A stretch of DNA of 64,000 bases from a virus (lineage: Duplodnaviria > Caudoviricetes): positions 167,715 through 231,714 of IMG/VR virus record IMGVR_UViG_3300009031_000368; one strand, given 5' to 3'. The position numbers and the translations under genes are program-made. Below the pieces are notes generated by a model. That model was not told the DNA's origin and made no database searches. It was given only the letters and a program-made list of their open reading frames with translations. This document shows, one piece after another, positions 220 to 62,862 of this stretch; position 1 is the stretch's first letter; every line of letters begins with the position of its first letter.

Positions 220-690
220 ATGATGTCAGCAATAGATTCCATTAAATCAACAAACCCTACCAATCCGGGCATGATGATTGACAGTGAAACCAGGCTCGCA
301 CTTTTAGAAAAATCAGTCAATAGTCAAACCGGCACCATCCGTGAAGGTTTGAACGCACAGGTAAAGCACCTAGATCGCGTATCGCAAAGCCTTGAAAAAA
401 TCCGCGATAGAATGGAGCAGAGCTTTGACATGATGTCAAAAAACATGTCAGAACTTAACAGCACCATGTATCAACAGGGATTGATGATGATAAATTACCT
501 CCGATGGTATAACATCATGGGTATTGTCACCGTTGTTGCCGTCTGTATCCTGGCTGGATCCAATTTTTACTTCAAGTGGAAGGAAATTGAGCTTCGTTCA
601 GGCAGTCAAGCAACACACGTTATCACAGAATCAGCTCAAGCCGCAGGGAATCGGGAAACATCTGAAGTTCCGGTTGTCCCGCGCAATTGA
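220..690 (+). CDS. coiled-coil membrane protein (holin/XhlA-like architecture, uncertain)
   Basis: GGAG at 213-216 before ATGATG; long heptad-like region then a hydrophobic segment IMGIVTVVAVCILAG. Confidence 0.6.
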   Translation: MMSAIDSIKSTNPTNPGMMIDSETRLALLEKSVNSQTGTIREGLNAQVKHLDRVSQSLEKIRDRMEQSFDMMSKNMSELNSTMYQQGLMMINYLRWYNIMGIVTVVAVCILAGSNFYFKWKEIELRSGSQATHVITESAQAAGNRETSEVPVVPRN

Positions 691-701
691 TTGCATCCAG
701 C

Positions 702-1211
702 TTAATTCTGCCTATGCCATTGCTTCTTACCAGGCACGACTTCATAGCCGAGCCGCCGCATCAGATCCGATAATCCCTGCCTGGACAGCTTAATGTTCAT
801 ATCATCCAATACCGCAACAACGTCACAGGCAACAACGGTCGGTCGGTCTGACATCCACTCCACGATCTTAAGTTCCTGCTCATTGGTCATCTTCCTGCAT
901 ATGATGCCTGACTTCTTGTTATACGTCCGACCGATGACCTTGGGATTAATGCCGTGCTCGGCAAGGATCTTCCCAACATCGTAATAGGTAAGCGCCACAC
1001 CGACCTTCTCAGCTTCCACAAAAATATCTTTCCTGGTGATATTCTTTTGGGCTAGAATCTTTTCGATCTGTTGTTCCGTCAGCTTTTGTTTTTTTACTCT
1101 TGTTGTATCCATAACATATCCATCATGCAAAAGACAAAGGCCGGAGGCTTTCCCCCGGCCCGTCATCAACGTTGTTATACTTCCGACAGGTAAAGTACCC
1201 TGTCTCGCCAC
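702..1211 (-). CDS. tandem HTH DNA-binding protein (IS630/homeodomain-like HTH repeats)
   Basis: Two similar units, KLTEQQIEKIL...VGKILAEHGI and KMTNEQELKIV...LSDLMRRLGY; no DDE domain; true start probably MDTTRVKK. Confidence 0.55.
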   Translation of the reverse strand: MARQGTLPVGSITTLMTGRGKASGLCLLHDGYVMDTTRVKKQKLTEQQIEKILAQKNITRKDIFVEAEKVGVALTYYDVGKILAEHGINPKVIGRTYNKKSGIICRKMTNEQELKIVEWMSDRPTVVACDVVAVLDDMNIKLSRQGLSDLMRRLGYEVVPGKKQWHRQN

Positions 1212-1477
1212 TCCACACGTACCCTGTCACGAGTCATCGACAGAAGGAGCATCGCAGTAACGATCGGGCTCTGCTTCGATGCCGACATTCCACCACTCTT
1301 AAGCTTTCGTCGTTTGACGGCTCCACTTCCCATCCCAATATCCCGCTTGGCTCGAGCCAGTAACCGAGATGGGAAAACGAGACTCTTGGTTGCCGTATCC
1401 AACAGAACTCCACGCTTAAGACTAATCAGCATGACATACCTCCAAACGTACAGGTTCATTGACTGAGATGAATCCAT
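1175..1477 (-). CDS. hypothetical protein
   Basis: ORF in the minus-strand gene string. Confidence 0.5.
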   Translation of the reverse strand: MDSSQSMNLYVWRYVMLISLKRGVLLDTATKSLVFPSRLLARAKRDIGMGSGAVKRRKLKSGGMSASKQSPIVTAMLLLSMTRDRVRVEWRDRVLYLSEV

Positions 1478-2126
1478 TGATGGGGATTCCCCATCTGGAA
1501 TTGAGAAGCTTGTAACCGATCCTACCGTCCTTCAAACCTTCCGACAGCTGAATACGTCGTCCAGATTTTGTCAATACGACCTTACCCATATGCTTGCCGG
1601 CCTTCTCGAAACCGTCTGGCAACACTCGATCCATCCTGTCGAAACAGCTGTACAGATCAACAGTTTGTCCTACCGGACGTCCTGTCGCCATGTTTAACTG
1701 TCGGCAGATCCACTCCCACGTAGAAGTGAACCCAACCCTGTCAGCCTTACTGGAATCATAGCCAAGAGCCGCCTTCAACCCATCTTCATCAAGACTGACC
1801 AGTTGAGCTGTCGTTGAGATGCCAGCAGCCAACAGTCGCTTCACGGCTCTGGCCGGAACATCTTTCTCGAATTCTGCATGCTCATCTGCCGACGCCGATT
1901 CATCGGACGAATCAGCGTCATTCTCAATAACCGCCACCGGCTCTCGGTACAGCTCAAGCGCCTTCAACACGCTGGCATACCCTGACCGATCGACGATGTC
2001 TGGATTAAACCCGACGATTTCCTTGATTTCATCGTGGCTCAATGCCTTCAGCTGTTGCATATCGGTAACGCCGTAACTGGCAAGTTTCGCGGCAGCACGC
2101 GAGCTCATCATGAATCCGTCAAACAT
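1422..2126 (-). CDS. protein with two RNA polymerase alpha-CTD-like (HhH) repeats
   Basis: SSRAAAKLASYGVTDMQQLKALSHDEIKEIVG and PARAVKRLLAAGISTTAQLVSLDEDGLKAALG resemble the alphaCTD pattern; GGAG RBS; own promoter. Confidence 0.55.
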   Translation of the reverse strand: MFDGFMMSSRAAAKLASYGVTDMQQLKALSHDEIKEIVGFNPDIVDRSGYASVLKALELYREPVAVIENDADSSDESASADEHAEFEKDVPARAVKRLLAAGISTTAQLVSLDEDGLKAALGYDSSKADRVGFTSTWEWICRQLNMATGRPVGQTVDLYSCFDRMDRVLPDGFEKAGKHMGKVVLTKSGRRIQLSEGLKDGRIGYKLLNSRWGIPINGFISVNEPVRLEVCHAD

Positions 2127-2168
2127 CGTCGCAATCTCCCAGCCGTTGAATCATCAAAATCTGATTAC

Positions 2169-2197
2169 AATATAGCATGCCGGTCTGTTTTTGTCAA
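2169..2197 (-). promoter_or_regulatory. sigma70-type promoter
   Basis: TTGACA-17 nt-TATATT with extended -10 TG. Confidence 0.85.
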
Positions 2198-2204
2198 GAG
2201 AAAA

Positions 2205-4994: not shown

Positions 4995-5816
4995 TTAATC
5001 GATGTGTGCGACAGCGACATTTAAATCATGATCAGCATCTTTGTCGCAAGAATCTAAATACTCACAAATCGAATACAGCATGGTTCTGCGCAATTGATTG
5101 CACGCCTGGTTGTCGCAAACAAAGTAATCCTCACAGTATGTATCTTCACAGTCACCGCGCGACACATACATGAACGCGGCACGGCCATCATACCAGAACG
5201 AATCGATGGTAACGAAACTGTTGTCACAGTCCAAAACGTGTTGATGTCGGCGAACCTCACAACCTCGTACTACAATTTCAGAATATCGGTCACCGTTAAG
5301 ACCATCCACCAAATAATCTAGATGACGCCAAACCTCATCACATTCAATCACGGTGTATGGGAAGTTTAGCGCGTCAGCGACCGTAGGTCGATACAATGCC
5401 TTTATACGAACAATTTCGCTTTGCTCTAATGCTACAAATTTAGAATCTTGCTCGAGCCAGTCGATCCAATCTCCAACGTCGCTGGACTGTATCAGCTCTT
5501 CCCTTGTGTCGAGAGGCTTCCAGTGCTCCAGCACTTCAATTAAATCTTCATCCGTAGCCAAACAGTTTGTAACTCTATCGCCAGAACCTGTCACGTCTTC
5601 AGGAAATTTCATGCATTCGGCCCATTCCCCATCACCGGCATGGAATGTGCCATCACCGTTACTTACAGCGACTTCCCTGAACCATCGTGGTTCTCCGTTA
5701 AGCAGCTTCCCGGTGAAGAACCGAAGGATGGTTTCGTTTCGGATCCTTCTCATATAAAGCTTACCTGTAACGATGTTTTCCATGATGGTCTCACTTCGCG
5801 GTTGAATCGGCAACAA
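4995..5816 (-). CDS. hypothetical protein
   Basis: 273-aa acidic ORF; start probably MENIVTG. Confidence 0.7.
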   Translation of the reverse strand: MLPIQPRSETIMENIVTGKLYMRRIRNETILRFFTGKLLNGEPRWFREVAVSNGDGTFHAGDGEWAECMKFPEDVTGSGDRVTNCLATDEDLIEVLEHWKPLDTREELIQSSDVGDWIDWLEQDSKFVALEQSEIVRIKALYRPTVADALNFPYTVIECDEVWRHLDYLVDGLNGDRYSEIVVRGCEVRRHQHVLDCDNSFVTIDSFWYDGRAAFMYVSRGDCEDTYCEDYFVCDNQACNQLRRTMLYSICEYLDSCDKDADHDLNVAVAHID

Positions 5817-6748: not shown

Positions 6749-8689
6749 TTACCGGATCGGGCAACTTCCGCCCGCACATTCTTCAGTTTCAATCCATCCT
6801 TCTGTTGTCAATGGATGATTATAGTTAATTGCTCGATTCATGTCAACGAACGTATGTTCATCGATTGATTCATATGGTGGTTGCTGATATCCGTGGTCGC
6901 TTGGCAGGCAACTGGTAGACTTGAGCAATGGCACATACCGGCGCAGACAGTCGGCCAGTTCATCGATGTTGTTTTTATCAAACGTAATGGTTTGACTTAC
7001 CGCATTATCTGCCCAACTGGTTTGAACAGCTAGTTGGCGTGCGAACTGGTTTTCGACAGAATCATTCTTAACCGTGACTCGTGCAACCGATTGCATGGGG
7101 AAACTGAATACTAGCGTGTGGCCAGTTTTATCATACACACATGGCTCATATGTTAATCCGGCTTCCTTAAATGCACCAACCATTGGATCATTGTCGGCCA
7201 ACCTGACGCGACGAATGTAATACCGGTCGAATGCCGCATGGTTGCCAGGCGACGACCCGCAAAGCAAACTTATGGTGCCACTTGGCTTCACCGTAGTCTT
7301 TGTAATCGGCCGGTTAACACCAAGCTCATCGGCATAATGGTCTGCGCAATCAATTACATGATCTCGCCATGACACTAGCTGTTCGTTCGTCCAGCTAAAA
7401 TCACACAACCCACCAAGAGCAACGCCAATCCTCATATTCTGTTTACCGACCAAATCTGAAACAGGATCTATTAATGCCGGCAACCGCTGACGCATCGCAT
7501 ACCTGGTAGCAAGTGTCAGTCGCCGTGTGGCCGATATGGCGCCAACCCTAAGTGCTTGAAAAACCTCAGCTAAATTGCACGCCTCGCCATCCCATAGCGA
7601 TTGTTCGCCGCACGGATTAAATCCCGTTGCGAATGGATCAGTCTTCCATACATTGACCATGTTTACGATACCAGGTTCTCCAAACAGTGCCATATCGTTT
7701 GCAACACTATACCAATCAAATGATTGAATCTGTTCTTCACTTGTAAACATTAAGCTGTTATTGGATGTATGTCTGTGAGATAATACTTTTGCCAGGTCTT
7801 TTTTTGCATTTCTAAAGTCCATATCGTACGGATGCCCCAATATCAGCAAAGAACTCCTGCGCACGTTACCTGATTTGATACAGAAACCAATGTGGTTCGT
7901 GATATCCAGGCACTCAACAGAATTAAGTTTTCTGCCATGCGCACCATCCACAATCTGCCAAATCTCCATCAACATTCTAACAAGTGGTCCCGGGCCGCAT
8001 GCCACGCCTCCAAACGTTTTAATGACAGACCCGCGTTTGCGAATTCTACTGACATCGATCTCAATATGTTCACGTCGATATGCAGCATGCAATACCATTT
8101 GCAATGCTTCCACCCATCCTTCACGAGAGTCCGGCACGATGAATCTATGCTTTTGCATATACCCAATAGACTTGCGCTCCTTTTCAATCTCATAAACTGT
8201 ATCTATGACTTCTTTATAGTCTGCATGTCTCTCATCACATACGATATCAAGAAATGCAAACGGCTTATCACGTTTGCTGGAGACTACAGGCATTGTGTCA
8301 ATCTTCGCAAGACTAACTCCAACACCACCGCCGAGCATCAGTCTATCTGCAACCCAGCACCAATCATCAGGCTTAGAAATTTGTATATTCCAGCAGTTGA
8401 ACGCCGCATCCGGAACCATTCCCTTAACGCCTCCTGTCCATAATCCACGACCCGGTGGTAATGCCTGCATGGTCCAAAAACAGTCAAACAGTTGTTTGGC
8501 TTCATCGATGGTGCAACGTGGATCTAGATTACAGTTTCCTTCAACCACTCGCCTGATGGTATCGGTCCATGTTTCTCCATCACGACAATATTTGGTCAAA
8601 TATGTGGCGCGGGCCAACAGGTTCGGAAAGCAATCTCCTTTAATGTAGTATGGTGCAAGGAAGTCATAATCTAGTTCGATTCTCTTCAT
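6749..8689 (-). CDS. nrdJ: class II (adenosylcobalamin-dependent) ribonucleotide reductase, monomeric RTPR type
   Basis: PPGRGLW, AFNC, GFNPCGEQ finger loop, TTVKPSGT, C-terminal EECAGGSCPIR. Confidence 0.95.
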   Translation of the reverse strand: MKRIELDYDFLAPYYIKGDCFPNLLARATYLTKYCRDGETWTDTIRRVVEGNCNLDPRCTIDEAKQLFDCFWTMQALPPGRGLWTGGVKGMVPDAAFNCWNIQISKPDDWCWVADRLMLGGGVGVSLAKIDTMPVVSSKRDKPFAFLDIVCDERHADYKEVIDTVYEIEKERKSIGYMQKHRFIVPDSREGWVEALQMVLHAAYRREHIEIDVSRIRKRGSVIKTFGGVACGPGPLVRMLMEIWQIVDGAHGRKLNSVECLDITNHIGFCIKSGNVRRSSLLILGHPYDMDFRNAKKDLAKVLSHRHTSNNSLMFTSEEQIQSFDWYSVANDMALFGEPGIVNMVNVWKTDPFATGFNPCGEQSLWDGEACNLAEVFQALRVGAISATRRLTLATRYAMRQRLPALIDPVSDLVGKQNMRIGVALGGLCDFSWTNEQLVSWRDHVIDCADHYADELGVNRPITKTTVKPSGTISLLCGSSPGNHAAFDRYYIRRVRLADNDPMVGAFKEAGLTYEPCVYDKTGHTLVFSFPMQSVARVTVKNDSVENQFARQLAVQTSWADNAVSQTITFDKNNIDELADCLRRYVPLLKSTSCLPSDHGYQQPPYESIDEHTFVDMNRAINYNHPLTTEGWIETEECAGGSCPIR

Positions 8690-11676: not shown

Positions 11677-11892
11677 TTATCTGGTTAGCGCCAGAGCTCC
11701 ACGCCACCAGGCACGTCCGGCCATATAGGAAAGGTCGGCGATCAGGAAGTAACCGGCATATGCCAACGCCAGATAACCATATGTCACATTTTCAGACAGC
11801 TGCGCAATTGATTGCATGCCGGTTATCGACAGCGCGAGCGCGATAAAGCCGGCAATAATCCAAAACATGAAGGCAATCAGTCTTCCATACAT
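11677..11892 (-). CDS. small two-TM membrane protein
   Basis: Two hydrophobic helices. Confidence 0.65.
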   Translation of the reverse strand: MYGRLIAFMFWIIAGFIALALSITGMQSIAQLSENVTYGYLALAYAGYFLIADLSYMAGRAWWRGALALTR

Positions 11893-11904
11893 GGTGTCTG
11901 TCCT

Positions 11905-13306: not shown

Positions 13307-13327
13307 AGCGATTATCTATCACAACGG

Positions 13328-14045: not shown

Positions 14046-15620
14046 CTATGCATCATAGATATTAAATGTATCAGGAGTCTCGCGTTCAACTATCGGTTGT
14101 TTGATTTCTCGATTAGCCATCACGGCTCTACCGGATTTTGCCCATCGGCGCAACATGTCAATCTCTTCTTTCATGGTTTTTGAAAGTGGAACCGTGCAAT
14201 TGATTGCATCAATGACGTCCTGCTCAATCAGATCCCTGCCATGAAAATACGCTTCATACATGGCCGACTCGATAGCTTGTTCAATTTCTGCACCATTAAA
14301 TCCATCAGTAAGCCGTGCCAAAATGTTTACATTAAATTGACTAACATCTCGGTTGCGCTTTTTGATGTGTATTCTAAATATCGATTCTCGTTCGTCATGT
14401 ATAGGAAGGTCAACAAAGAATATTTCATCAAACCTGCCCTTGCGAAGCAATTCGGGCGGAAGTGCTGAAATATTATTGACGGTTCCAACAACAAATACGT
14501 GGCTGGTTCGTTCCTGTAGCCATGTAAGCAACTTACCTCTAATCCGCGTTGTGGTGCCATGACTTTCTTGACCGGATCCGCCACCAGCTAGCGCCTTCTC
14601 CATTTCATCAATAAACAAAACGGCCGGCGAGGCAGCTTCAACGACACGGATTGCCGCCGATACGTTGGCTTCCGATTGACCGACATACTGATTCATCAAT
14701 GAACCAATATCTAGTCGCAATAACGGTAGCTCAAGCATATTGGCAATTGCCTTTGCCGTTAACGATTTGCCACATCCGGAAATTCCTGCCAGGATTACAC
14801 CTTTGGGAGTCGATAAACCGAAATCAATGGCCTGTTGGCTGAAAGCACGTTGTCGACGTTCAAGCCAATGCTTCAGGTTGTCAAGACCACCGACATCGCT
14901 TATTGAAACCATCGTATCGACATATTCCAATAGGCCGCTTTTCTTAACAATCTCTCGCTTTTGCTTTGCCACTTCGGTAGCTGCTCTGCCGTCTATGGTG
15001 CTAAATTCAACACGGCACATCGCAAGCGCGGTATCGAATTCATCTCTGGTTAGTCCAAGTCCCGATCTAACGATCTTATCGATATCATCATCTGAAAGTT
15101 TATTCTTTGCGTTAAGTCTTTTGGCAATCGTCGTTATCCTGTCAGTCAAGACTTCGCGTGTCGGCATCGGCAATTCAATGACCTGCATATCCTTTTCAAG
15201 TTCAACCGGCACGCTTTTTACTGGTTGTATGAGAATGATGGTTTTTAGATTTTTTGAATTCCGGAGCGCAAATGTTGCTTCACGAAGCGCGCGTATTGTT
15301 TCTTTTTCATCATGCATAAAAGGGTGAAAATCAAAGCCAACAAACAGTGCATCACCGACATGTTTTATCGCTTCAAAAACAAAACCAATGGCATCAACCT
15401 GTTCAACCTTGTCTTCGTTGACACCATACAACCCCTTTGATACAGACCATAACTTGATTCCTACCATACGAGGTTCGGCCTCAGCAGTCTTAGGTAGCGA
15501 TAATCGTCTGGCCACTTCCCTTACATATTCGATGGCCCGGCGCTCTTCATGAGTCACGATTTGGATCAACGGACATTTGGCCATAATTAGCTTTTCGAGG
15601 ATTTCCATATTTCTCTCCAC
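14046..15620 (-). CDS. AAA+ ATPase, Ycf46-like (inactive N-terminal plus active C-terminal AAA module)
   Basis: PKGVILAGISGCGKS (Walker A), VLFIDEMEKAL (Walker B), TVNNISALPPELLRKGRFDEIFFVDLP (SRH). Confidence 0.95.
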   Translation of the reverse strand: MERNMEILEKLIMAKCPLIQIVTHEERRAIEYVREVARRLSLPKTAEAEPRMVGIKLWSVSKGLYGVNEDKVEQVDAIGFVFEAIKHVGDALFVGFDFHPFMHDEKETIRALREATFALRNSKNLKTIILIQPVKSVPVELEKDMQVIELPMPTREVLTDRITTIAKRLNAKNKLSDDDIDKIVRSGLGLTRDEFDTALAMCRVEFSTIDGRAATEVAKQKREIVKKSGLLEYVDTMVSISDVGGLDNLKHWLERRQRAFSQQAIDFGLSTPKGVILAGISGCGKSLTAKAIANMLELPLLRLDIGSLMNQYVGQSEANVSAAIRVVEAASPAVLFIDEMEKALAGGGSGQESHGTTTRIRGKLLTWLQERTSHVFVVGTVNNISALPPELLRKGRFDEIFFVDLPIHDERESIFRIHIKKRNRDVSQFNVNILARLTDGFNGAEIEQAIESAMYEAYFHGRDLIEQDVIDAINCTVPLSKTMKEEIDMLRRWAKSGRAVMANREIKQPIVERETPDTFNIYDA

Positions 15621-16782: not shown

Positions 16783-19700
16783 TGTTTTCGTTTAGTAGAT
16801 AGGAAACTCAAACAAAGCTGTAGGTTACTGTTGGTCTTAGCCGGCCTTCTTTTAACAAGTTGTTGTTCCAACGGATGGCAAGCTTCTATTGTCTTTTCTA
16901 CTCCCGGCTCTAACTCGATAACTGTTGCCGGTTCATCGATTTGATAAAACACATTATCCTGAAGAGTATTGATCGTTGCATCGTCCGGATAATTTTCCAC
17001 ATCATCTTCAGTAAATTCAAATCCGTCAATATCTTCTACACCGCTAAGTTCTCCATTGATTGCCGCCAGTTCTCTCTTAACTTTGCGGTATTTGGCCATA
17101 TGGTCCCACGGTTTACCAAGTTCTACCTTGATTGATTGTAACCGTACCGTTGACCGCGTGATGGAATCCGCAATTGATTGCATGTTCCCATCTAGAGATC
17201 TCAATTGATAATCGACACTCTGAATCGTTCCAATATCCGAATCCATTACTCCAGCTTTAAGTTGCGGACATCCATCACCGGTTATGATGATTGAAGGCGG
17301 ACTTAACGTATAGGTATGGCTAACATTATATCTTACATGCAGGTTGAATCCACGATACATTCCTATCTGGTAATCAAACATTCCCACCTGTTTCTGGCTG
17401 ACGATTTTTGACTTAGCAAGATTAACAAGTGTATTGATTCTTATGCATGCATCTTTTCTTTCGACGAACGGATCATATTCAACACTACCTGTAGGCTTTA
17501 ACAATTTGATTGAAAATTTATCCGTCGTGTTCTTATCGCGCACCGAGACAGCATGCTTTATTTCAGACAATTCCGTCTGGCATGATTCAATAAAGCCAGG
17601 TAATGTCTTTTCCTCCCGCAACATCGAATATCTGGAATTGCGCCATGCGGTATACAGCTTATCAAGCTTTACCGATTCAACATCCAGCGCAACCTTTTTC
17701 ATAATCCTTGGATCGCCGCTCGCAATCGCCTTAACCTGCGCGGCATTTAGAATCATATCGCCGACATCTTCAGCAGCCCTGATAGTTACGCTGCCTTGCA
17801 TAATTTGTGAAATGAAGCGAGCCTTTGCTTCCAACAACTGCCACATGAACGCGCATGCTTTTGTCACGTATACGAATTTTAAAACCTCATTCAAGCCCCT
17901 ATCCGATATGACTTCATTACCCTGTCGCAGCGCTCTTCCATCACACTGTTCAATATCGGTAGGCCGCCAAGGTGGAGTCAAATAATGCAATGCGATAAGT
18001 CTTTTTTGCACATTCATTCCAACACCTTTTGATGTCGGAAGAATCATAATCCTAACGTCTCCTTCATTGAATTGACGGAACAATGCTTCCTTTCTGGCCG
18101 GAGTATTGTAGTCGTGGATAAATACAACGTGTTCCGATGGGATGCCGGCTCGAATCAGCTTTCGCTTAATGTCATAATACACGCCATCCCTTATGAATAA
18201 CTCTTCTTCCGTCAACACCTCACCGGATGGCTCTTCATCCAGGTTTATTTTTGATTTCGGAGTAGACAGGTCACAGAAGACAAGCTGCGTATAGCGCTTT
18301 TCGTCATATCGCCTATATACCTTAACGATTTGTTCAACCGCTTTGTTGATTTTATTGCCAGGATTTTCGCCAAGCGAAGGCTTTACCAGCCTGACATCAA
18401 GTGCGGCCTTTCTTAGGTCGGTAGTGATCTTCAGGAAGTTGTCTTGTGTCGGATCTACCAGTTTATCCTTAATGTCATCGGCTCGTTGTGCAAACCATGA
18501 CAGCAGTTCATTCAATTCGCCAGTATCTTCAACCTTTATAACGATGGGTTTATCACCATAAACGGTTGGTTCATTAAGCTTGAGTTGTTCCTTTGTTTTA
18601 ACGTTCCATACTTGCCTGAGAATATGAACCAACTCTGGCAGGTTAAAGAATTTAGCCAAACGTTGCACCACTTCCCACTTTCCAGTAACCTTCATTTCGA
18701 TGCTGGATACAACACTGGCGAAACATTTTACCCATGAATCAAATGTCTCTAGTCCGAGCTTCTTCAATAGATCAAATTGAAGATACTTCATGACGGTGTA
18801 GATTTCGGCCATCGTATTTGCAATCGGCGTCGCGGTGGCAAAGAATACCCGCCCACCTGTTTTAAGCAGATATTGTGTCTTGATAAACATATCAAAGGCA
18901 CGATCCGATTCTGTCATCGATAGGCCGGCGATATTGCTCATATTGGATTCAAATCCCAAGTTTTTATGCTCATGGGATTCATCATTTACAATGACATCAA
19001 TACCAAGGTCTTCAAAACACGGCATCATGTTGGCATTATCACGCTTAATGTCTGACTGCTTGTTCTTTAGCTTTACCTCTAATCGCTTAATCTTTTTTTC
19101 AATGCGCTTGGATGTGATTTTATCGATTTCACTGGTGCGGCTCCGGCTACGGTATCCAGACTTTGATTGCTCCTGTACCTCCGTCAATTGTTTACGTAAT
19201 GCATCGATCCGCTCATCAACATATCCGATAAATGTTTCATCCTTTAGTGGAATCATTTTCCATGCGGTGTGCGTAAAAATAGCTATCACATTTTTACTGG
19301 TCGCGATACGGCTCAAGAATTCCGCCCGTTTATCCGGACTGAAGTTTACCTTGTCGGCAACCATCACGGGAATACCGGGATAAAGCTGCCGTACATACTC
19401 GCCCCACTGTTCCACAATATTGTTAGGAACCGTAATCGCACACTTCCTGGCCAACCCTAATCGAAGTAATTCGGCGCAAGTTATTGATATTGAAGCGGTT
19501 TTGCCACTTCCAACTGAGTGCGCCAACATCATCGTTTTACTTTGCAAGCCTTGCCAAGCGGCATCTAGTTGATGAGGATATGGCGCAAGTTCAACGGTGT
19601 TGTTGGTAAATGGCAGGTATCGGCTAATTCCTGGAAGCGTTAGGTGACTTCCATCATATTCGCGCTCTCTGAACACATTATATGTTTCGTTGTAAATACT

Positions 19701-41309: not shown

Positions 41310-41726
41310 TTACTCCTTTTGTTTATAGTTCAGCAGATCATTAATTAACCTGACGTATCTGGCAATAGCTGTTGCGTCTAACCTTAACGCATACCTGGCC
41401 ATCGCCGATCCATCTCTAGAATCCCACAGCGTTCCAGCAAGCAGGAACTGATTCCACTTGTTGGATTCAGCCGAAAGACATCTGACAAATGTGTCGTCAT
41501 CAATATCAACCAGAGCCCCATGTCGTGATTCAGTTTCTACGCTGAAATGGTTCGACATACAGAGCATCGATTCCAATACTGCAACCTGATCGAAATATCG
41601 GATTGAAGCTGTGAATAAATCACCACCATTACATCCATCAATAAAAGCTTCCCGACCACTACGATACGATGCCCCTAATGAATCAATCCGCTCAATAAAA
41701 CGCTGTGCAATTGATTGCTGTTCCAT
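41310..41726 (-). CDS. hypothetical protein
   Basis: GGAG RBS inside a hairpin; TATAAT upstream. Confidence 0.65.
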   Translation of the reverse strand: MEQQSIAQRFIERIDSLGASYRSGREAFIDGCNGGDLFTASIRYFDQVAVLESMLCMSNHFSVETESRHGALVDIDDDTFVRCLSAESNKWNQFLLAGTLWDSRDGSAMARYALRLDATAIARYVRLINDLLNYKQKE

Positions 41727-43016: not shown

Positions 43017-44600
43017 TCACACGTTAACGATATTGTCTATATGAGATTGACACACTGATTCCATCAAATCAGTTTCATTAAATCCAACATACGTCAAAAG
43101 CTCTTTTGTCGATTCAGGCATGCAGGCAACCGTTAGTCCGGTCTGGTGATAAAATTGAGCATTCAATTGCCAAACTGATTTTGAAAATGCAAGCGCCTTA
43201 CCGGGTGAGATACTGACACGACGGCTGACATCAACGTATGGAAAACAGTATGGAGCACGCACAATTTTGCCGTCAGGCAATCTGACAACCAATCCGCCTT
43301 CCCGTGATCCAATAAGAAAATCCCGACAATCAGCGATATCGGTAACCTGTTCGGTTTTTGTCGCCAAGTGCTCGATTCGTTTAACGGTGATGCGTTCCGG
43401 CAACATCGTTGTTACATCTTTCATCGTCTGCCCGGTTGCAACATCATCATCAAACAAAATATACTCGCCAGATGGGATTGAATCAATCTGATTTGCGATT
43501 GATGGGCTTCCGGGGCGATTCATCATGCCTGTTCTGACACTATCCGAAACATCAAAACATCGACTCAACTTTAGATTGAATTCCATCGGGATACATGGAT
43601 CCAAGCTAATTGATTGCTTGTCCTGTGTTTTTATCAGTGCAATCAATTGCTGCTGTCGTACTTGATTGACTGAAACATCGCATTTCTTAAAACAATCGGT
43701 TATTGCCATGCTCAACAAATGTTTAAAACGAGGATACCTGAATGGACGTTTGGGAAAATGTGCCACAGCCCATTCACCTTCGTCGCGCAATACGATTTTA
43801 GCTTGAGACTCTGGCTCTTTCATCTTTCGATACATATCAACAATTGATGAAGGAATTGAACTCAATTCACCGTGTCTTACATCGGTCGATGATGCACCGA
43901 CATCAGACATTGTCCACATGATACGATTTGTTGCCAGCCGTGGATCGTTGCGATACTGTTCATAACAAACACCGTATCCTGGACGGCCAACCACTATGCA
44001 ATGCTCCATTGATTGAAACGTCAATGCAAGCCTTGCATTATCACTACCACACACATAAATGATGGTAATGTCTTGATTGACATGATATTCCAGGTATCGC
44101 TTTAGATGGATGATGACGTCGGTAAAGTTTACCGCACAACCAGCCACCAGAGCCTCCCACCTGTCTACCATAAGCCAATCGGAACCCTTTACAGATTCTT
44201 CGCACAGCGCGATACGTTGTTCAGCGTTTAATACATCCGGTCCGACCTTGGTATCAATATATTCATCATGACCAGGTGAAATGTATCCGCCTACGATGTT
44301 GTATCCGTTTGATTCTGCACATCGTTTCGCGACTTCCATTGCGGCAAGATGTCCGGTATGGATTGGACAAAATGCTCCAGTGGTTAACAATACGGCAGGA
44401 TTAATAGGATTGCTGGCTAGATTTCTAACAATCTTTCCGACAGGTGAACACATGAACCATGGTTCAGTGATTGATTTATTGATTGTTGATGAATCTTCAA
44501 AGAATCCAGCTTCATTTACCTGATCAAAGCTTGATGTCTTGTTGTAAATGTCACCGTAATATGGATCGCGCTGAATTTTCCAAAGATTCATTTGTTTCAC
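43017..44600 (-). CDS. NMN/NaMN adenylyltransferase (NadD/NMNAT-like) fused to a type I phosphoribosyltransferase domain
   Basis: TGAFCPIHTGH (HxGH), GGYISP, VDRWE, CGSD, SSTDVR; later ILFDDDVATGQT (PRPP loop). Confidence 0.85.
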   Translation of the reverse strand: MKQMNLWKIQRDPYYGDIYNKTSSFDQVNEAGFFEDSSTINKSITEPWFMCSPVGKIVRNLASNPINPAVLLTTGAFCPIHTGHLAAMEVAKRCAESNGYNIVGGYISPGHDEYIDTKVGPDVLNAEQRIALCEESVKGSDWLMVDRWEALVAGCAVNFTDVIIHLKRYLEYHVNQDITIIYVCGSDNARLALTFQSMEHCIVVGRPGYGVCYEQYRNDPRLATNRIMWTMSDVGASSTDVRHGELSSIPSSIVDMYRKMKEPESQAKIVLRDEGEWAVAHFPKRPFRYPRFKHLLSMAITDCFKKCDVSVNQVRQQQLIALIKTQDKQSISLDPCIPMEFNLKLSRCFDVSDSVRTGMMNRPGSPSIANQIDSIPSGEYILFDDDVATGQTMKDVTTMLPERITVKRIEHLATKTEQVTDIADCRDFLIGSREGGLVVRLPDGKIVRAPYCFPYVDVSRRVSISPGKALAFSKSVWQLNAQFYHQTGLTVACMPESTKELLTYVGFNETDLMESVCQSHIDNIVNV

Positions 44601-45143: not shown

Positions 45144-46244
45144 CTAAAGGCTGGCGAGAAAACCGGACACCCGATCCGCAATCGCTGTATTGCCCCACCG
45201 GCCATGTTCCTGCCTGACTGCAAGTTCATACCTGCTGTTACAACTACATGTTACATATGGGATATCTGAAACATCGCGGCTATATAGGTATCGCTCAATG
45301 TTGGCGATTCTAACATCCCGACACGTCATGCAACTAATTGCGCATTCCGAGTCTGGATTGATTGATGGTTTCAATTCAGACGTATTGACCATAACTTCCA
45401 GACCATATCGGTGCGTGATGCGGAGAATCTCTTCAACCGTTTGAATCCACGCAACACCATATAGCCCCATTCTGTGAAGTACCGCGCAAGTCGTATTGGG
45501 AGCAACACGATTCGGACATAGGGTGATATACGTTACGCCTAGACGCTTCAGGTACTCAACCGAGTCTTCAACGTCATCGATAGTTTCTGACTCCGTCACA
45601 AATGGCGGTTTAATCATCAAAAACGCAAGCGGGATATAGTTGTGCTCAAGCAATATTTTTGTCGTCGATTCAAAAGCATGTTTGGTACATGTGGTATTGA
45701 TGGCAATGTTTCTAATGTCATCATTGGCCGATTGAAAACCCATAAACACGCCAAGCCGGACATCGCCGAGGATGCCCTTTACATGGTCAAGCTTTTCAGC
45801 AGTCACATATTGAGGGAGTGACTCAACTACAGCGTAGTTGGCACCAAGCTGTCGGATCCGCTTGAACATATGATCGCGTGCTTCTGGTGAAGTTTCCGCA
45901 TCATTAAAAAAGTTACCATTACAAAATAGCGTAACCATGTCGTAACTGTTTACATCACCGATAAAAGATGATTCAAACTGATTGATGAGATTATCGGTTT
46001 CAATGCCTGGTAGTGCTTCATTTGGGAATGGACACATGGTACACGTTTTTACACGGCATCCACTTGTCAACAGCACGATACGTTTCCTGGTTACCCGTTG
46101 TCCTTCAAATAGGATTGAATCTGACTTATGATGTTGAGGAAGATCCTTCGATACATTGACATCAACGGTAGATGTTCTAAGAGAACGGGTAAATCGTGTA
46201 AGTTCAGATCGAAGGTCCGACATAACTTCATCTCCATCATGCAA
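45144..46244 (-). CDS. RaSEA-like (TIGR01210/archaeosine-lyase family) radical SAM protein
   Basis: LTSGCRVKTCTMC, GNFFND, VVESLPQYV, GFQSANDDIR..IN, FLMIKPPFVTE.E.IDD, C-terminal CxxC...CxC. Confidence 0.8.
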   Translation of the reverse strand: MHDGDEVMSDLRSELTRFTRSLRTSTVDVNVSKDLPQHHKSDSILFEGQRVTRKRIVLLTSGCRVKTCTMCPFPNEALPGIETDNLINQFESSFIGDVNSYDMVTLFCNGNFFNDAETSPEARDHMFKRIRQLGANYAVVESLPQYVTAEKLDHVKGILGDVRLGVFMGFQSANDDIRNIAINTTCTKHAFESTTKILLEHNYIPLAFLMIKPPFVTESETIDDVEDSVEYLKRLGVTYITLCPNRVAPNTTCAVLHRMGLYGVAWIQTVEEILRITHRYGLEVMVNTSELKPSINPDSECAISCMTCRDVRIANIERYLYSRDVSDIPYVTCSCNSRYELAVRQEHGRWGNTAIADRVSGFLASL

Positions 46245-47211
46245 TCAATTGCAGGTTTATTCCTTCCCAACCGCCCGGAACAGTACGCTCCATGATATCA
46301 AAATGAACAGCTGGACTGCCGACACGGTACTTGTGGGCATTCCGCTTATGAATCTTTTCAATGGCTGCAAAATGCGTTCTCAATTCACTTAAAGCATCCG
46401 CACAAAGATAGCATCCGATAAATATCCGTTCAACCTTTGAAGTCATCACCAGTTGATACAATTCAAGATGTTCATACGTTGAGCCGAACATCTGTTCATC
46501 TGTCTGTCCATCCCATACATCACCGGCCGGAACGGCCTGAATGATGGAATCCGGAACGTGGAGATACTTGGCAACTTCGTATACTTCACTTTTATGAATG
46601 TCACTAATCGGTTGAATATCAACCATTGCATCGGATGCCTTACCGAAGAAACCAATATAGGCGCCTTCAGATCGATTTGTGGTCCCGACAACTACCGCGC
46701 AATTATTGCCATTATCTTGAAGCAGTGCGGCAATGTAGTACAGGGCTGGCGTTCTAATAATTGAGCTGATTTGGCCATATGCCCATGCATTCCTGTTTAC
46801 ATGAGAATCTGTACTACCGTGCTCAACCATCGTTGCAATACTATTCAGTCCATGAGACAGGTCTGCCGACCATGGTTTGATGACATCACCATAGATGACG
46901 TTCATCCGATAGATTGCTTCCCCCCCACGTTCCGAAGCAACAGTCTGATTCGATGTGCCGATCCCACTAACCGGCAACCTGGCAGCAACAATCCTTTTAA
47001 TCGGACTACCCGGCTGCTGGCTGGCATGGCCTAGCAGGCCAAGTACAACCGCGCTATCGACTCCACCACTAATGCCAACAACGCAACTGTCGATCCCGCA
47101 TTCAGTGAAGTACTTGTTGATGGCTTTACACTTTTTGTTGACATAAGTGTCAACATCGAATGCGCGCTTGGCTCTGGCTGATTCAAGTAATTTCATTAGT
47201 TGTGGATGCAT
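46237..47211 (-). CDS. nadE: NH3-dependent NAD+ synthetase
   Basis: VVGISGGVDSAVV (PP-loop), GTTNRSE..IGFFGK..D, PISDIHKSEVY, GQTDE; no glutaminase domain. Confidence 0.9.
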   Translation of the reverse strand: MHPQLMKLLESARAKRAFDVDTYVNKKCKAINKYFTECGIDSCVVGISGGVDSAVVLGLLGHASQQPGSPIKRIVAARLPVSGIGTSNQTVASERGGEAIYRMNVIYGDVIKPWSADLSHGLNSIATMVEHGSTDSHVNRNAWAYGQISSIIRTPALYYIAALLQDNGNNCAVVVGTTNRSEGAYIGFFGKASDAMVDIQPISDIHKSEVYEVAKYLHVPDSIIQAVPAGDVWDGQTDEQMFGSTYEHLELYQLVMTSKVERIFIGCYLCADALSELRTHFAAIEKIHKRNAHKYRVGSPAVHFDIMERTVPGGWEGINLQLIA

Positions 47212-51202: not shown

Positions 51203-51672
51203 TGTTTTCCGACAAGCATTCTTCCGTGTCCTGAAATATTGAGCTGGAAGTGACCAACGTTAAATCCAAGACCTTCAGCATATCTGGCTAGATGGTTGTA
51301 CCATGCCAGACTATTACCAGTTTTGAATTCAGTAACTGTTGGCCGGACACAACACGGGACAACCGCGAACGGTACTTTTCGCTTTGCCGCTTCAGCGATT
51401 ATTACATCGGTGGCTTCATCGGGATGCATACCGACCACAAGATCAAATTCATCCTTAATCGATTGATCAAACAGTCGCCACCTGATGTTAACCCGTCTGG
51501 CATTCTTTCGACGCTGTCCATCGAAGCTAACAACATGGTAACCAAACCGTGACAATTCTAGATTCAGCTCGCCAGTACCGCCAGCCACATCGGCAACCAG
51601 TCGATACATGGATACTGGAAATTGCCGTGCAATCAATTGCGCAAACTCGACAAAACGCCTTGAATCGCCCAT
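51199..51672 (-). CDS. class I SAM-dependent methyltransferase
   Basis: VADVAGGTG motif I; FDLVVGMHPDEAT; PFAVVPCC. Confidence 0.8.
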   Translation of the reverse strand: MGDSRRFVEFAQLIARQFPVSMYRLVADVAGGTGELNLELSRFGYHVVSFDGQRRKNARRVNIRWRLFDQSIKDEFDLVVGMHPDEATDVIIAEAAKRKVPFAVVPCCVRPTVTEFKTGNSLAWYNHLARYAEGLGFNVGHFQLNISGHGRMLVGKQ

Positions 51673-52471: not shown

Positions 52472-52959
52472 TTCAGACCCCTTTCAATTCCGATGGCGCG
52501 CACAACGGTTGGATCGAATTTACCGAGACCAGATTTCATAACGGTACCAATAAACTGGCCGAGCGACTTGGCTGATTCTGCAATTGATTGCACCAACTGT
52601 TTCGTTTCATCGACAGAAAGGAACTTCGGCAAATAACCGGTTAGGAGCTCAATTTCAGCACCGTATTGAGCCGAAAGTGGAGTCTGCCCCATAACGGTAA
52701 TCGACTTTTCCAGGCTTTTCACGTATCGCCTGACGACTGCCTCTTCGCCATCTGGTGTCCAACCGGTAAAGTTTCCCGACTTTTCATCACGTTCAAACTC
52801 AGACAGAATGTTACCCATCACGGTGCGGGTAAACTGATCTCTGTCCAAAAGCGCCTTACGCGAACGTTCAACAAACTGTTGTTTTAACATTTTGATTCCT
52901 TCCATAATATTCAACGGATCAGTCATCACGCTTATTGGTCCACTTTGTTTTAAGCGCAT
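52468..52959 (-). CDS. GatB/YqeY domain protein
   Basis: ALLDRD...ILSE...EIELLTGYLPKFLS..E...MK. Confidence 0.75.
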   Translation of the reverse strand: MRLKQSGPISVMTDPLNIMEGIKMLKQQFVERSRKALLDRDQFTRTVMGNILSEFERDEKSGNFTGWTPDGEEAVVRRYVKSLEKSITVMGQTPLSAQYGAEIELLTGYLPKFLSVDETKQLVQSIAESAKSLGQFIGTVMKSGLGKFDPTVVRAIGIERGLK

Positions 52960-54232: not shown

Positions 54233-54295
54233 ACAAATAAAACAGCCGGGTTGACGTACAAAACCAAACCCGGCATACCAACAAGGAATGATATA

Positions 54296-56425: not shown

Positions 56426-56524
56426 ACGAGCACAGGTAGCCGGATAGAGCGTTTGTGCAATTGATTGCTGGTCATACGACCTTGGTGGATTCGTTTATCT
56501 GTTCGGCGGAAATAATACTTATCG

Positions 56525-59132: not shown

Positions 59133-59921
59133 TTATCGCTGAAGTACCTGTTTGGCTGCTTCAACGTATTGTACCGATAGCCGGACGAATTCGTCTGACG
59201 TCCTATCGCCGTAGCCTACCAGCTTGCCTTCAGCGTCGCAACAAAGTTCAGGATACCGTTCAGCTACCGGAGCCAAAATATTGACCGTTTCATGCGACAA
59301 GCCACCGGCTGCACCAATCAATACTGTGCCATCGGCGATCTGTTTAACCTTCAACAGTTCATCGATACATCGCAACGTAAAGGGGATATTGATATCCTTT
59401 CCCTTGCCCCCACTGAGATCTAGCAACACGTAATCGATGATGGAAATATTGCGAGAAGCACCAACCGCCAAGTAGGATTCCAATTGTGCCCTTAGCCCTT
59501 TTTCATATTCACATTTACTGAGCGCCGTTGCTCCAAGTTGAAGTACGATCTTAACGCCATACCGCTCTTTCAATCTGAGTAGAATGTAAGGATTTGGCCA
59601 TACGACATTTAGTTGAAATCCATGAAGCGGGACGCCCTTACACCGTGCAATCAATTGCTCACATTGCAGGTAAAGATCATCTTTATTATCGGTGCTGAAA
59701 TGGATCAGATTGAGACATCTGGCGTCAGGTGAAAAGATTGAGGGGATGGTGCCAACTGGCGGATACTTGAATGGATATCGGTTGGTTTGACCGGATAACG
59801 TCTTTGAGCTAGCCAGCACGCCGACCATCAATTTCCTGTCACAAAGAACTGGCATTCCTGACAATACCTGTTCGACCTGTTGCCTGGATGTAAAGCCAGT
59901 GATACCGATATAGGGATTCAT
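59133..59921 (-). CDS. PRAI/TrpF-like TIM-barrel protein
   Basis: YIGITGF, LIHF, GFQLN..WP, DYVLLDLSGGKG, IGAAGGLSHETV, CDAEGKL. Confidence 0.65.
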   Translation of the reverse strand: MNPYIGITGFTSRQQVEQVLSGMPVLCDRKLMVGVLASSKTLSGQTNRYPFKYPPVGTIPSIFSPDARCLNLIHFSTDNKDDLYLQCEQLIARCKGVPLHGFQLNVVWPNPYILLRLKERYGVKIVLQLGATALSKCEYEKGLRAQLESYLAVGASRNISIIDYVLLDLSGGKGKDINIPFTLRCIDELLKVKQIADGTVLIGAAGGLSHETVNILAPVAERYPELCCDAEGKLVGYGDRTSDEFVRLSVQYVEAAKQVLQR

Positions 59922-60154
59922 TACCGTTCCTTGTTGTCGCACAGAACTAAGTCGGCCCGACGTTCCTGTATTGTTTTTTGACCGAAATGACGCCTGGGAT
60001 TGCCACAATGCGGGCAACTGCAAACCGTTCCAGTATTGGTATGACGTCCAATCATTGCAGCGGACGGTTCATCGATATTCCATATATCACGAAGTCGTTG
60101 CTTTGCCCGTTCCTTTATTCTCTCATGGTGGTGTCTACGGATGGCTTTCATCAA
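59921..60154 (-). CDS. small basic Cys/His protein
   Basis: CSCPHCGNPRR; TAATG coupling. Confidence 0.6.
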   Translation of the reverse strand: MMKAIRRHHHERIKERAKQRLRDIWNIDEPSAAMIGRHTNTGTVCSCPHCGNPRRHFGQKTIQERRADLVLCDNKER

Positions 60155-61068: not shown

Positions 61069-61078
61069 CGGTCAGCAA

Positions 61079-61516
61079 TTACCATTTATGGTAATGGGCA
61101 ATTACTTCTGTTCCGTTCGCCGGGATACGATCAAATCTAAACGTAAGTCGCCCAACAGTGTAATTGATTGTGCCGACACCATCTCCGACCAGTCCACCGC
61201 ATCCATCATCAAAAAGAATCATTCCATCACACTCAATGACTGTCGTGATTTCAGTTAATCTGTTTAACTTTAAGTCTCTAGTCGTCTTATATGCCAGATA
61301 CGCTGCCTGTCGATTAGTACAAGGTAGAATTGGATGATGGGTTGTCATCCAAGCAAATAGATCCTGCCTGCCATCTGATATTGCAATAATGTCTTTATAC
61401 ATAGTTTTTGAACCATTCGACATCTTCCGGCCTGGCCACATATAGATCATCGGTACAGTCAAGATGTTCAACAAGTTGAGCATAAACACTGTATGCGGTC
61501 GACATTGCCGCACCAC
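61079..61516 (-). CDS. hypothetical protein with a virion-structural-like beta motif
   Basis: DDGCGGLVGDGVGTINYTVGRLTFRF..IPANGT. Confidence 0.5.
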   Translation of the reverse strand: MVRQCRPHTVFMLNLLNILTVPMIYMWPGRKMSNGSKTMYKDIIAISDGRQDLFAWMTTHHPILPCTNRQAAYLAYKTTRDLKLNRLTEITTVIECDGMILFDDGCGGLVGDGVGTINYTVGRLTFRFDRIPANGTEVIAHYHKW

Positions 61517-61623
61517 AAAACCCGACCTGATTATAAAGATGTTTGGCGAAGTTAATCGCCAAGGCTGGCAACTAGGTCATTTGAATAAACTTATTTTCCA
61601 TACTGAGAACTTGTGCTTTCATA

Positions 61624-62253
61624 TCAGAATCCTTCTAGTTGTGGAACATTAATTTTCAATACATCTGCAATAATTGGAATATAGCCTGTTGCGATTAATG
61701 TTAAAATGTCATGTTTTGATGTTACACCTTCAGCAATCGGACCAGCTTGTGGATTAAACGTTTTATCCATTTCTGTGCGGTGTCCGTCATAACAGATCAA
61801 ATACCCTTTGTCTCTGGCATCTCCATAAATATGATCCGTATGAAACCAAGGAACAGTGAACCCTATTGACTTGAAATACTCAACATCATATCGACAACAT
61901 GAGGCATTATAGATATTGAGCAGTTTATCATCTTGCACGATATACAGGAAGTCAACAGAAGGCGTCTTGTGAACCCATACCCGAATGCCTGATTGTTCGA
62001 TGAAATAAAGGCTATGGTTACAATCACAAAGCAACAACTTGTTGGATTCAGTGTGCCCAAGCTCTACTAGACGGTTATGGATCGAGATAGTGGCCGGCAA
62101 CAATAATTGCTGAGACACCATACCCCAATACGTTTCCACTACCTTTGAAAGGTGATATGGTCCACAGCTAACCTGAAACAGTTGACCGGCCGTTTCTCGC
62201 CTAAACCGGTATGTATCAAACGTGTTGGTATTCATCGGAATGACATCTTTCAT
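61624..62253 (-). CDS. hypothetical protein
   Basis: 209-aa ORF. Confidence 0.65.
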   Translation of the reverse strand: MKDVIPMNTNTFDTYRFRRETAGQLFQVSCGPYHLSKVVETYWGMVSQQLLLPATISIHNRLVELGHTESNKLLLCDCNHSLYFIEQSGIRVWVHKTPSVDFLYIVQDDKLLNIYNASCCRYDVEYFKSIGFTVPWFHTDHIYGDARDKGYLICYDGHRTEMDKTFNPQAGPIAEGVTSKHDILTLIATGYIPIIADVLKINVPQLEGF

Positions 62254-62265
62254 CAGTTGGCAACA

Positions 62266-62754
62266 TTATTCGCCCAATCGTGTCCGTGTCAGGATTCTAA
62301 TAAATGCACTACCGTCAAAGCTCTTGTCGAAATATGCGCGGCTGGCTGCTTCAACGCCTTCTCGGTTTGGAATGAATCGCGCCAACGGTGTCTGCCCATC
62401 TGGATAAAAATGTGGATCAATACGATGTTCATCGATTTTATCCCATGCAGGTTTGCTGAAGATAAGTAGCTTTAGCCCATGGAATTTCTTAACTTCCGGA
62501 TACTGTACCAACACGAGAACATGACGGTCATTACTGGCTTCCATTCTTACAAATGAAAATGCCGGTTTACCGCTATGGTTAGGTCTCTTATCGGTTCCAG
62601 CAAATGGAACAGGATCTGCCGGACGGTCATAGCTCTGTGTATACCTGGCACTATTCCCGCCCGTGCAACCAGGACTATTGCAATGTTTTGGTCCGTCAAA
62701 ACGGGTAGATTTAACCGAACATCCAGGACTATTGCATCCATGGCATGTGCTCAT
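62266..62754 (-). CDS. phage-type hypothetical protein
   Basis: VQYPE..FHGLKLLIF...IDPHF...PLARFIP; repeated CNSPGC motif. Confidence 0.65.
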   Translation of the reverse strand: MSTCHGCNSPGCSVKSTRFDGPKHCNSPGCTGGNSARYTQSYDRPADPVPFAGTDKRPNHSGKPAFSFVRMEASNDRHVLVLVQYPEVKKFHGLKLLIFSKPAWDKIDEHRIDPHFYPDGQTPLARFIPNREGVEAASRAYFDKSFDGSAFIRILTRTRLGE

Positions 62755-62862
62755 TGATTACTCCACACCCTTAGCTTGATGCTGTTTTCAGGAATCATGT
62801 AACGTCAGGAAAATATCACGAGGCGGCTGGTTTGTCACGCGCAATCAATTGCACCGGTTGAT

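Follow-up and report, generated by a model that had tools for sequence, protein, structure and literature searches.

Short DNA words repeated along a genome are read in several described systems. The parS sites of ParB and the Noc-binding sites (NBS) are 14–16-bp palindromes with a central pyrimidine–purine (YR) step, bound by a dimeric helix-turn-helix (HTH) domain, and Noc sites occur chromosome-wide. KorB, a ParB-family global regulator of the IncP plasmid RK2, reads about a dozen 13-bp OB palindromes over 60 kb, i.e., ~1 per 5 kb, some of which lie far from promoters or inside genes. Cluster A mycobacteriophage stoperators and phage P1 C1 operators comprise tens of repressor sites, many within transcription units, while Chi of Escherichia coli is a short asymmetric word that is read on single-stranded DNA and skewed with replication. 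Finally, Cluster O mycobacteriophages carry >30 copies per genome of a 17-bp dyad, TGTTCGG-NNN-CCGAACA, with invariant inverted arms, mostly one asymmetric centre, and an orientation independent of transcription, whose function was stated as unknown (PMC4351075, Cresawn et al. 2015, a paper that also draws a comparison with stoperators). Here, we describe an array built on the palindromic 12-mer GCAATTGATTGC in a 64-kb stretch of tailed-virus DNA (IMG/VR record IMGVR_UViG_3300009031_000368, positions 167,715–231,714; hereafter “the window”). The array is real, strongly selected, and conserved across a clade of phages. By analogy, its closest counterparts in behavior are the dispersed palindromic sites of the ParB family, i.e., Noc sites and KorB operators, together with the Cluster O repeats.

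The window is the terminal 64 kb of a virus record that consists of one 231,714-bp contig (here called G000; 44% GC, estimated 76% complete). The gene content of G000 (tail sheath, baseplate wedge, tape measure, T4-like portal, large terminase) is that of a jumbo myophage that also encodes an S77 prohead protease, a class II ribonucleotide reductase, and a 1712-aa DarB-like methylase-helicase, with ~80% of genes on the minus strand. All 17 exact copies listed in a preliminary description of the window were recovered with their coordinates and strands, against 0.04 expected and a maximum of 1 in dinucleotide-preserving shuffles; with ≤1 mismatch allowed, 20 matches were found vs. 0.96 expected. 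Genome-wide, G000 holds 53 exact copies, 24 on the plus and 29 on the minus strand. The consensus is sharp: both strands together contain only 27 one-mismatch matches, compared to ~3 in shuffled sequence, and GCAA/TTGC pairs number 73 at a spacer of 4 but 2–9 at each of the other spacers between 0 and 11. As proposed earlier, the flanks lengthen the dyad, with G at −2 in 40/53 copies, Y at −1 in 50/53, and R at +12 in 47/53; outside −3 and +14, positions look random, without conservation. Two details of the preliminary description required revision. Among its five near-copies, those at 7346 and 32421 (one mismatch) and at 7083 (two) stand, whereas nothing within two mismatches lies at 46699 or 52989. 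The centre, described as always an asymmetric TG/CA, is so within the window but not across the genome, where the 58 GCAAT-NN-ATTGC sites comprise 53 TG/CA, 4 CG, and 1 TA centres; a CG centre prevails in high-GC relatives, and the centre is generally YR, not strictly TG/CA.

Most copies (45/53) lie within called open reading frames (ORFs), in five of the six frame/orientation combinations, and are translated as QSIA, QLIA, AIDC, NQL, or AINC. The earlier suggestion that the constraint acts on DNA and not on protein was borne out by shuffling synonymous codons G000-wide with every protein sequence and the codon usage kept: a mean of 8.4 copies (maximum 11) survived vs. 53, approximately the number of unshuffled intergenic copies. 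The motif itself encodes 41 of the 46 QSIA/QLIA/AIDC/AINC tetrapeptides of the G000 proteome, and the DNA word therefore shapes proteins. An origin of the array in chance, base composition, codon usage, or a mobile element has a negligible probability, since neither dinucleotide nor protein-preserving codon shuffles generate the motif and since it occupies five reading frames. A miniature inverted-repeat transposable element or a repetitive extragenic palindromic (REP)-like element was specifically ruled out: flanks are random beyond ±2 and farther out, and the motif is therefore not part of a longer conserved mobile element.

Copies in G000 are on average 4.25 kb apart with a coefficient of variation (CV) of 0.70, a more even distribution than under random placement (P = 0.005). 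The minimum gap of 514 bp would be matched or exceeded by random placement with P = 0.001, and the largest gap (17.7 kb) contains two near-copies ~5 kb apart. Significantly even spacing was observed in five of six genomes (CV 0.43–0.70, P ≤ 0.005), including four of the five distant relatives introduced below. Positions, on the other hand, turn over: for genic sites whose gene has an orthologue in another motif-bearing contig (30–60% amino acid identity), a site occurred at the aligned position in only 4 of 56 site–orthologue pairs, and in several families each orthologue bears a site, at another place in the gene. These sequence comparisons indicate that the density of sites, and not where they lie, is under selection. 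Even spacing and site turnover together argue against gene-specific operators and for a requirement of one site every few kb of phage DNA.

These properties set the array beside, and apart from, each of the systems above. Like NBS and parS, the site is a palindrome with a YR centre, although at a density roughly ten times higher than that of Noc sites. Density and dyad architecture are similar to those of the KorB operators, but the OB sequence is unrelated to the motif, and KorB carries a CTPase domain at its N-terminus and works with a ParA-type partner (IncC), whereas the CTPase domain, ParB_N, was not found in G000. Stoperators and C1 operators share with the array many copies of one short site dispersed over a phage genome; however, both are asymmetric and stoperators are oriented with transcription, while the motif is a dyad, with 23 copies co-oriented with the gene and 22 opposite in G000, and no repressor or lysogeny module was identified here. 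With Chi, the array has in common a genome-wide density of ~1 per 4.5 kb, a conceivable self-marking against nuclease, and, in one relative only, a strong strand polarity. It differs from Chi and from the FtsK-orienting polar sequences (KOPS) in being a 12–16-bp dyad with no skew (24:29) and no switch point in G000.

We next consider the distribution of the motif. No close DNA-level relative of G000 was found in INPHARED, and a terminase-based scan of IMG/VR for relatives confirmed nothing; distant relatives were obtained from a motif scan of IMG/VR with the word GTGCAATTGATTGC, and named relatives via the Ycf46-like AAA ATPase and the terminase. The motif scan returned 118 loci, 30 of which hold 2–7 copies of the 12-mer within ≤15 kb (GC 40–61%), while a scan with a control 14-mer yielded single-copy loci only, among the matches listed. 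Five full contigs with the identical 12-mer (G001–G005; L-numbers below denote fetched loci) contain, respectively, 26 copies in 62.6 kb, 30 in 101 kb, 20 in 51 kb, 19 in 52 kb, and 12 in 70 kb, and the reversed word was absent from each. Their proteins are 23–51% identical to those of G000 (23–33% for the terminase). The distant core that these contigs share with G000 consists of terminase, portal, protease, RecA-like protein, resolvase, ResIII helicase, Toprim primase, DnaB-like helicase, and Ycf46-like AAA ATPase. Overall, very distant phage contigs with a GC content of 44–65% match G000 in motif density. Two of these contigs, G003 and G004 (IMGVR_UViG_3300047655_000009 and _000011), derive from one sample, complement each other in gene content, and are alike in GC. 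With a completeness of ~50% each, they could represent the two halves of a single phage genome.

Strand usage varies between lineages. The earlier claim that both orientations occur, unlike in polar motifs, is correct for G000 but not for G002 (IMGVR_UViG_3300033516_000084; loci L257–L262), where 28 of 30 copies share one orientation, and neither gene strand nor GC/AT skew accounts for this 28:2 bias. The word may thus be polar in some lineages. G002 is also enriched in another palindromic word, GAAAATATATTTTC (core AATATATTTT, 33×), possibly a promoter or a further binding site.

In each of four named phages, the top over-represented word is a dispersed dyad. Vibrio phage SIO-2 has a weak form (GCAAT-YR-ATTGC 6×, TGCAATCAATTTCA 6×), Agrobacterium phage JP1 has ~47–54 copies of TGCAAACGTTTGCA in 97 kb, and Pseudomonas phage FBPa45 (Samunavirus) has 37 copies of TGCAA(A/G)CGCTTGCA. 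Mycobacterium phage Catdawg has 30 copies of TGTTCGGTTTCCGAACA, which is the published Cluster O 17-bp repeat, and 0 copies of GCAAT-NN-ATTGC. All four are the sampled named phages with a homologue of the AAA ATPase, i.e., 4/4 of these have a dispersed dyad word. The family motif is therefore YGCAAT-YR-ATTGCR or, equivalently, TGCAA-N4-TTGCA with a YR centre. The Cluster O repeats resemble the array in their many invariant dyad copies, genic and intergenic, with a centre orientation unlinked to transcription. They differ in half-site sequence and in spacer (7-3-7 there vs. 5/6-2-5/6 here), and the published account covers a single cluster, with a higher density toward one end of the genome (PMC4351075), whereas the word studied here is common to very divergent phages and evenly spaced. 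Taken together, the array appears to be of the parS/NBS/KorB-operator kind and largely undescribed: outside Cluster O, no description was found in the literature searched, where the 12-mer surfaced not as a phage motif but only in primer coincidences and the JP1 and FBPa45 variant words were not found as phage features.

Bacterial genomes hardly contain the word. Across 401 Gammaproteobacteria genomes, which like the larger set below are a sample of bacteria at large rather than of this phage's own host, we counted 0–6 copies per genome in 0.3–6.5 Mb, several hundred-fold sparser than in phage. A search of 185,579 species genomes gave scattered matches, with one locus carrying two copies, among the matches listed. 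A host-derived word (uptake sequence, REP, or HIP-like) was ruled out by this sparsity, i.e., 0–6 copies per genome. In a few bacterial genomes, copies lie 3–24 kb apart (G307:C6:62714 and 65789; G270:C1:195952 and 219981), and such copies may belong to phages of this group, present as prophages or as co-binned contigs.

Alternatively, the phage could present mimics of a host operator, one read by a LacI/PurR-like or other regulator, and so recruit or titrate a host protein. The words of JP1 (TGCAAACGTTTGCA) and FBPa45 (TGCAARCGCTTGCA) do look like LacI/GalR-family operators, a literature search with these words returned papers on MalR and CcpA operators, and the Gammaproteobacteria genomes hold the 12-mer ~10 times more often than its reversed control. 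Yet the same word is kept in phages ranging from 44% to 65% GC, hence probably with very different hosts. Moreover, LacI operators combine a CG centre with a LacI-type HTH, while the motif has a TTGA/TCAA centre (TG/CA in 53/58 sites) and the LacI-type HTH (PF00356) is absent from G000. We consider such mimicry very improbable.

Which protein would read the array? The binders proposed in the preliminary description, i.e., a tandem HTH (702–1211), a winged HTH (35453–35785), and a ribbon-helix-helix (RHH) protein near 54020, have no homologues in G001–G005 (BLASTP E ≤ 1e-4), and Pfam gave a sub-threshold HTH_33 match only for the first and nothing for the second. Thus, of the site system inferred earlier, the genome-wide array behaves like those of the parS/NBS/SlmA-binding-site kind in its spacing, turnover, and absence from bacteria, while its in-window readers are not supported. 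The conserved core includes two further proteins of unknown function, of 292 aa and 176 aa (the latter at genome positions 99843–100373). The 292-aa gene (genome 88217–89095, minus strand; PHROG 17202, with a sub-threshold DUF3102 match) lies ~79 kb before the window, as the last gene of a replication/recombination module and one gene upstream of the large terminase. It is also upstream of the large terminase in a 305-kb relative (L296) and in SIO-2, and the order primase–helicase–RecA–resolvase–292-aa gene was found in every contig fetched via its homologues. The family comprises 4238 representative clusters at E ≤ 0.001; its members in SIO-2 and JP1 are encoded at HQ316604 45341–46198 and PQ741606 59354–60619, respectively.

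The AlphaFold2 model of the 292-aa protein (56-sequence alignment) has a mean predicted local distance difference test score of 85.9. Its best Foldseek matches are parS-bound ParB/Spo0J structures (4umk, 6t1f; probability 0.96–0.99, E ~0.3–0.5). In structural alignments, residues 11–147 of the model superimpose on the DNA-binding domains of Spo0J-parS/ParB-parS (4umk, 6t1f), Noc-NBS (6y93, 7ol9), and Spo0J (1vz0) with Z 8.2–10.7 and a root-mean-square deviation of 2.5–3.2 Å, including 112/116 residues of 6y93; the sole comparable non-ParB match is the helical Raf1 N-domain (Z 7–7.7). The best fold matches are the structures 6y93, 7ol9, 4umk, and 6t1f, all from the Noc/ParB systems that the site itself resembles. 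The 292-aa candidate has no sequence similarity to Noc and ParB, and it has no detectable ParB_N domain, so that CTP-dependent clamping and spreading would not be expected.

Protein and site also co-occur: the motif or one of its variants is present in all 16 sequences that encode the 292-aa family. GCAAT-YR-ATTGC is found in G000, G001, G003, and G005, the weak form in SIO-2, and GCAAA-CG-TTTGC in JP1. Among the fetched loci, L296 has TGCAATCAAATGCA (3× in 20.8 kb; not multi-copy among the IMG/VR loci listed), L416 (GC 65%) has GCAAT-CG-ATTGC (6× in 18.5 kb), and L419, L423, L424, L428, and L429 have 5, 3, 3 (CG centre), 2, and 1 copies, respectively. GAAAT-CA-ATTTC occurs 4 or 5 times in L425, one GAAAT-type site lies within the 2.7 kb of L427, and L426 has six sites, each with one perfect and one degenerate half. 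The family profile matched 8 loci in ~1 Mb of motif-scan loci vs. 1 in ~1 Mb of control-scan loci. The invariant residues R75-K76-A-x-Y79 and G105-W-x-K-x-K110 fall on model helices 74–90 and 106–111, and changes at these residues accompany changes in the site. Specifically, the putative recognition helix begins with R-T instead of R-K in both GAAAT contigs (L425 and L427), R75, K76, W106, and K110 are all changed in JP1, which has a different inner half-site, and R-R proteins accompany GCAAT sites. This covariation, drawn from aligned sequences of few independent lineages, is suggestive. A site lies ≤150 bp from the 292-aa gene in 6/16 sequences (four of them 5′), a weak signal given that sites are generally enriched between genes.

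Several observations weigh against the 292-aa protein as reader. On the side of structure, Z scores in the observed range can be generic for helical domains, the protein has no sequence-level match to any solved ParB structure, and no profile–profile relation was detected between its family and the phages' own ParB_N proteins. Because of the first two points, we regard the modeled ParB/Spo0J/Noc-like fold as probable, not established. On the side of the sites, the R-T protein of L426 is accompanied by a half-degenerate site, not GAAAT; G000 has no site adjoining the 292-aa gene; SIO-2 encodes the protein yet has a weak, degenerate array; and the 28:2 strand bias of G002 is unexpected for a dimer site that is blind to orientation. 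Finally, the family was not detected in FBPa45, with its 37 TGCAA-N4-TTGCA sites, or in Catdawg, and co-occurrence may therefore reflect shared ancestry only.

The last point bears on a second candidate, a canonical phage ParB of the ParB_N (CTPase-domain) type, the G000 copy of which would lie in the missing quarter of this genome, estimated to be 76% complete. FBPa45 and Catdawg have dense dyad arrays, and ParB-like proteins occur in both (a weak match in FBPa45; gp90 in Catdawg) as well as in JP1. PF02195 (ParB_N) proteins are encoded by G001, G003, and G005, and each of these genes has a motif copy near its 3′ end. Nevertheless, the 231.7 kb of G000 yielded no PF02195 match, a phage-ParB profile was without matches in both G000 and the complete genome of SIO-2, and ParB_N-domain proteins are common in phages generally. 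G001, G003, G005, and JP1 carry both the 292-aa family and a separate ParB_N gene. We judge a canonical ParB to be an unlikely reader.

Another protein of the replication, recombination, and packaging core, such as the small terminase, the primase/helicase, the Ycf46-like AAA ATPase, or the 176-aa protein, could instead use the sites for priming, recombination, or packaging initiation. The motif-sharing clade is defined by its common core, from TerL and portal through RecA-like protein, resolvase, ResIII, primase, and helicase to the AAA ATPase, and even spacing would suit priming or packaging entry. In addition, the AAA ATPase (window 14046–15620, minus strand) is the only G000 protein for which BLAST found a counterpart in Catdawg (gp97), a phage with its own dyad array. 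The searches run, however, predicted no sequence-specific dimeric DNA-binding domain in the core proteins, and to our knowledge primases and RecA-like proteins do not read 14-bp dyads. A reader of this type thus seems rather unlikely.

The sites might also be substrates of an enzyme, i.e., T5-like nicks, resolvase or recombinase cleavage points, or a target of methylation or hypermodification. An exactly conserved centre and a very sharp consensus do resemble enzyme recognition sites, and the one-strand bias in G002 recalls one-strand nicks. The motif has ATTG on both strands, matching the (A/T)TT/(G/C) preference of RuvC, and genes for RuvC-like/RusA-like resolvases and a D12-class adenine methylase occur within the same module. 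On the other hand, a four-base resolvase preference needs no 12–16-bp word, the D12-class methylase is not universal among motif carriers, and no nickase was identified, making enzyme substrates a distinctly unlikely explanation. The genome segment 89517–97129 (L005:9517–17129), which adjoins the RecA-like gene, encodes the RusA-like resolvase, a Cas4/RecB-like exonuclease, an ATPase, and the D12-class adenine methylase, and is followed by a deoxynucleoside monophosphate (dNMP) phosphatase.

Weighing these alternatives, we tentatively favor, at somewhat below even odds, an array read by the conserved 292-aa phage protein with its ParB/Noc-like fold and marking the genome; both the binding and the biological role are inferred. 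Under this explanation, YGCAAT-YR-ATTGCR would be the protein-recognition palindrome of a large, ancient group of tailed phages, which would keep ~1 site per 2.5–4.5 kb on their own DNA wherever one fits, inside genes too. A dimer of the 292-aa protein would read the motif, with its 135 N-terminal residues, predicted to form a ParB/Spo0J/Noc-like HTH domain, contacting DNA and the central pyrimidine–purine step acting as a deformable point that joins the two half-sites. The array would then label the phage genome as a whole, in the way that a chromosome or plasmid is marked by parS, Noc-binding sites, or KorB operators, for use in compaction and organization, in the recognition of phage vs. 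host DNA for packaging or protection, or in long-range transcriptional control. A more specific and more speculative idea, to which we give only a modest chance, is that the evenly spaced palindrome is a sequence-based self label read by a ParB-fold protein devoid of a CTPase domain. If so, these phages would tell their own genome from that of the host for packaging, protection from their own nuclease, or compartmentalization by an alternative to base modification, in a group of thousands of protein clusters with hosts from 40% to 65% GC.

Whereas dispersed dyad repeats were earlier reported, and left unexplained, for one small phage cluster (Cluster O), an array on one conserved word spans jumbo myophages, ~80–100-kb Vibrio, Agrobacterium, and Pseudomonas phages, and many uncultured phages, and in dozens of genes the motif is strong enough to dictate amino acid sequence. 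These observations suggest that phage DNA has a genome-wide function still missing from textbooks and provide a candidate reader protein, and the cultured phages SIO-2, JP1, and Samunavirus make the array open to direct test. The word could also serve as a metagenome signature for this phage group.

Table 1 Copies and variants of the motif in the window (window coordinates; strand of ORFs in brackets)
Feature	Position	Strand	Context
Exact copy	683..694	+	3′ edge of ORF 211–690, essentially intergenic
Exact copy	5090..5101	+	within ORF 4995–5816(−), read NQL
Exact copy	11804..11815	+	between ORFs 11320–11577 and 11905–12300, probably intergenic
Exact copy	14196..14207	+	within Ycf46-like AAA ATPase gene 14046–15620(−), read AINC
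Exact copy	17170..17181	+	within DarB-like methylase-helicase gene 16779–21917(−), read QSIA
Exact copy	21540..21551	+	second copy in DarB-like gene 16779–21917(−), read AINC
Exact copy	23030..23041	−	within ORF 22754–23194(−), read AIDC
Exact copy	34367..34378	−	within ORF 34064–34645(−), read AIDC
Exact copy	38332..38343	+	within ORF 38304–38720(−), read QSIA
Exact copy	41707..41718	+	within ORF 41310–41726(−), read QSIA
Exact copy	43639..43650	−	within cytidylyltransferase-like gene 43017–44600(−), read QLIA
Exact copy	46241..46252	−	3′ end of ORF 46237–47211(−), read QLIA then stop
Exact copy	51629..51640	−	within ORF 51199–51672(−), read QLIA
Exact copy	52580..52591	+	within ORF 52468–52959(−), read QSIA
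Exact copy	56457..56468	+	intergenic, 32 bp past stop of ORF 54251–56425(+)
Exact copy	59647..59658	−	within ORF 59133–60023(−), read QLIA
Exact copy	62841..62852	−	intergenic, ORFs 62266–62754 and 63245–63541 on either side
Near-copy GCAACCGATTGC	7083..7094		two mismatches, CG centre
One-mismatch copy	7346..7357	−	
GCAA-N4-TTGC variant GCAAGTAATTGC	29522..29533		
One-mismatch copy	32421..32432	−	
One-mismatch copy	43159..43170	−	
GCAA-N4-TTGC variant GCAACTAATTGC	45330..45341		

The window and the fetched loci include further features of note. The DarB-like protein has an N6-adenine methylase domain alongside DEAD/SNF2 helicase domains, and the two motif copies in its gene (Table 1) stand in different frames. 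Among the ORFs scanned, neither DUF2997 nor DUF1257 was recovered beside the AAA ATPase gene. L426 (JGI 3300044445 contig, 21 kb) has six copies of CGCCTAGCCTGC, on one strand and mostly between genes, which make this word a candidate phage promoter or terminator element. In L296 (GCA_902730535.1, a 305,866-bp contig), the large terminase and portal genes carry intein/LAGLIDADG insertions (11843–18094).

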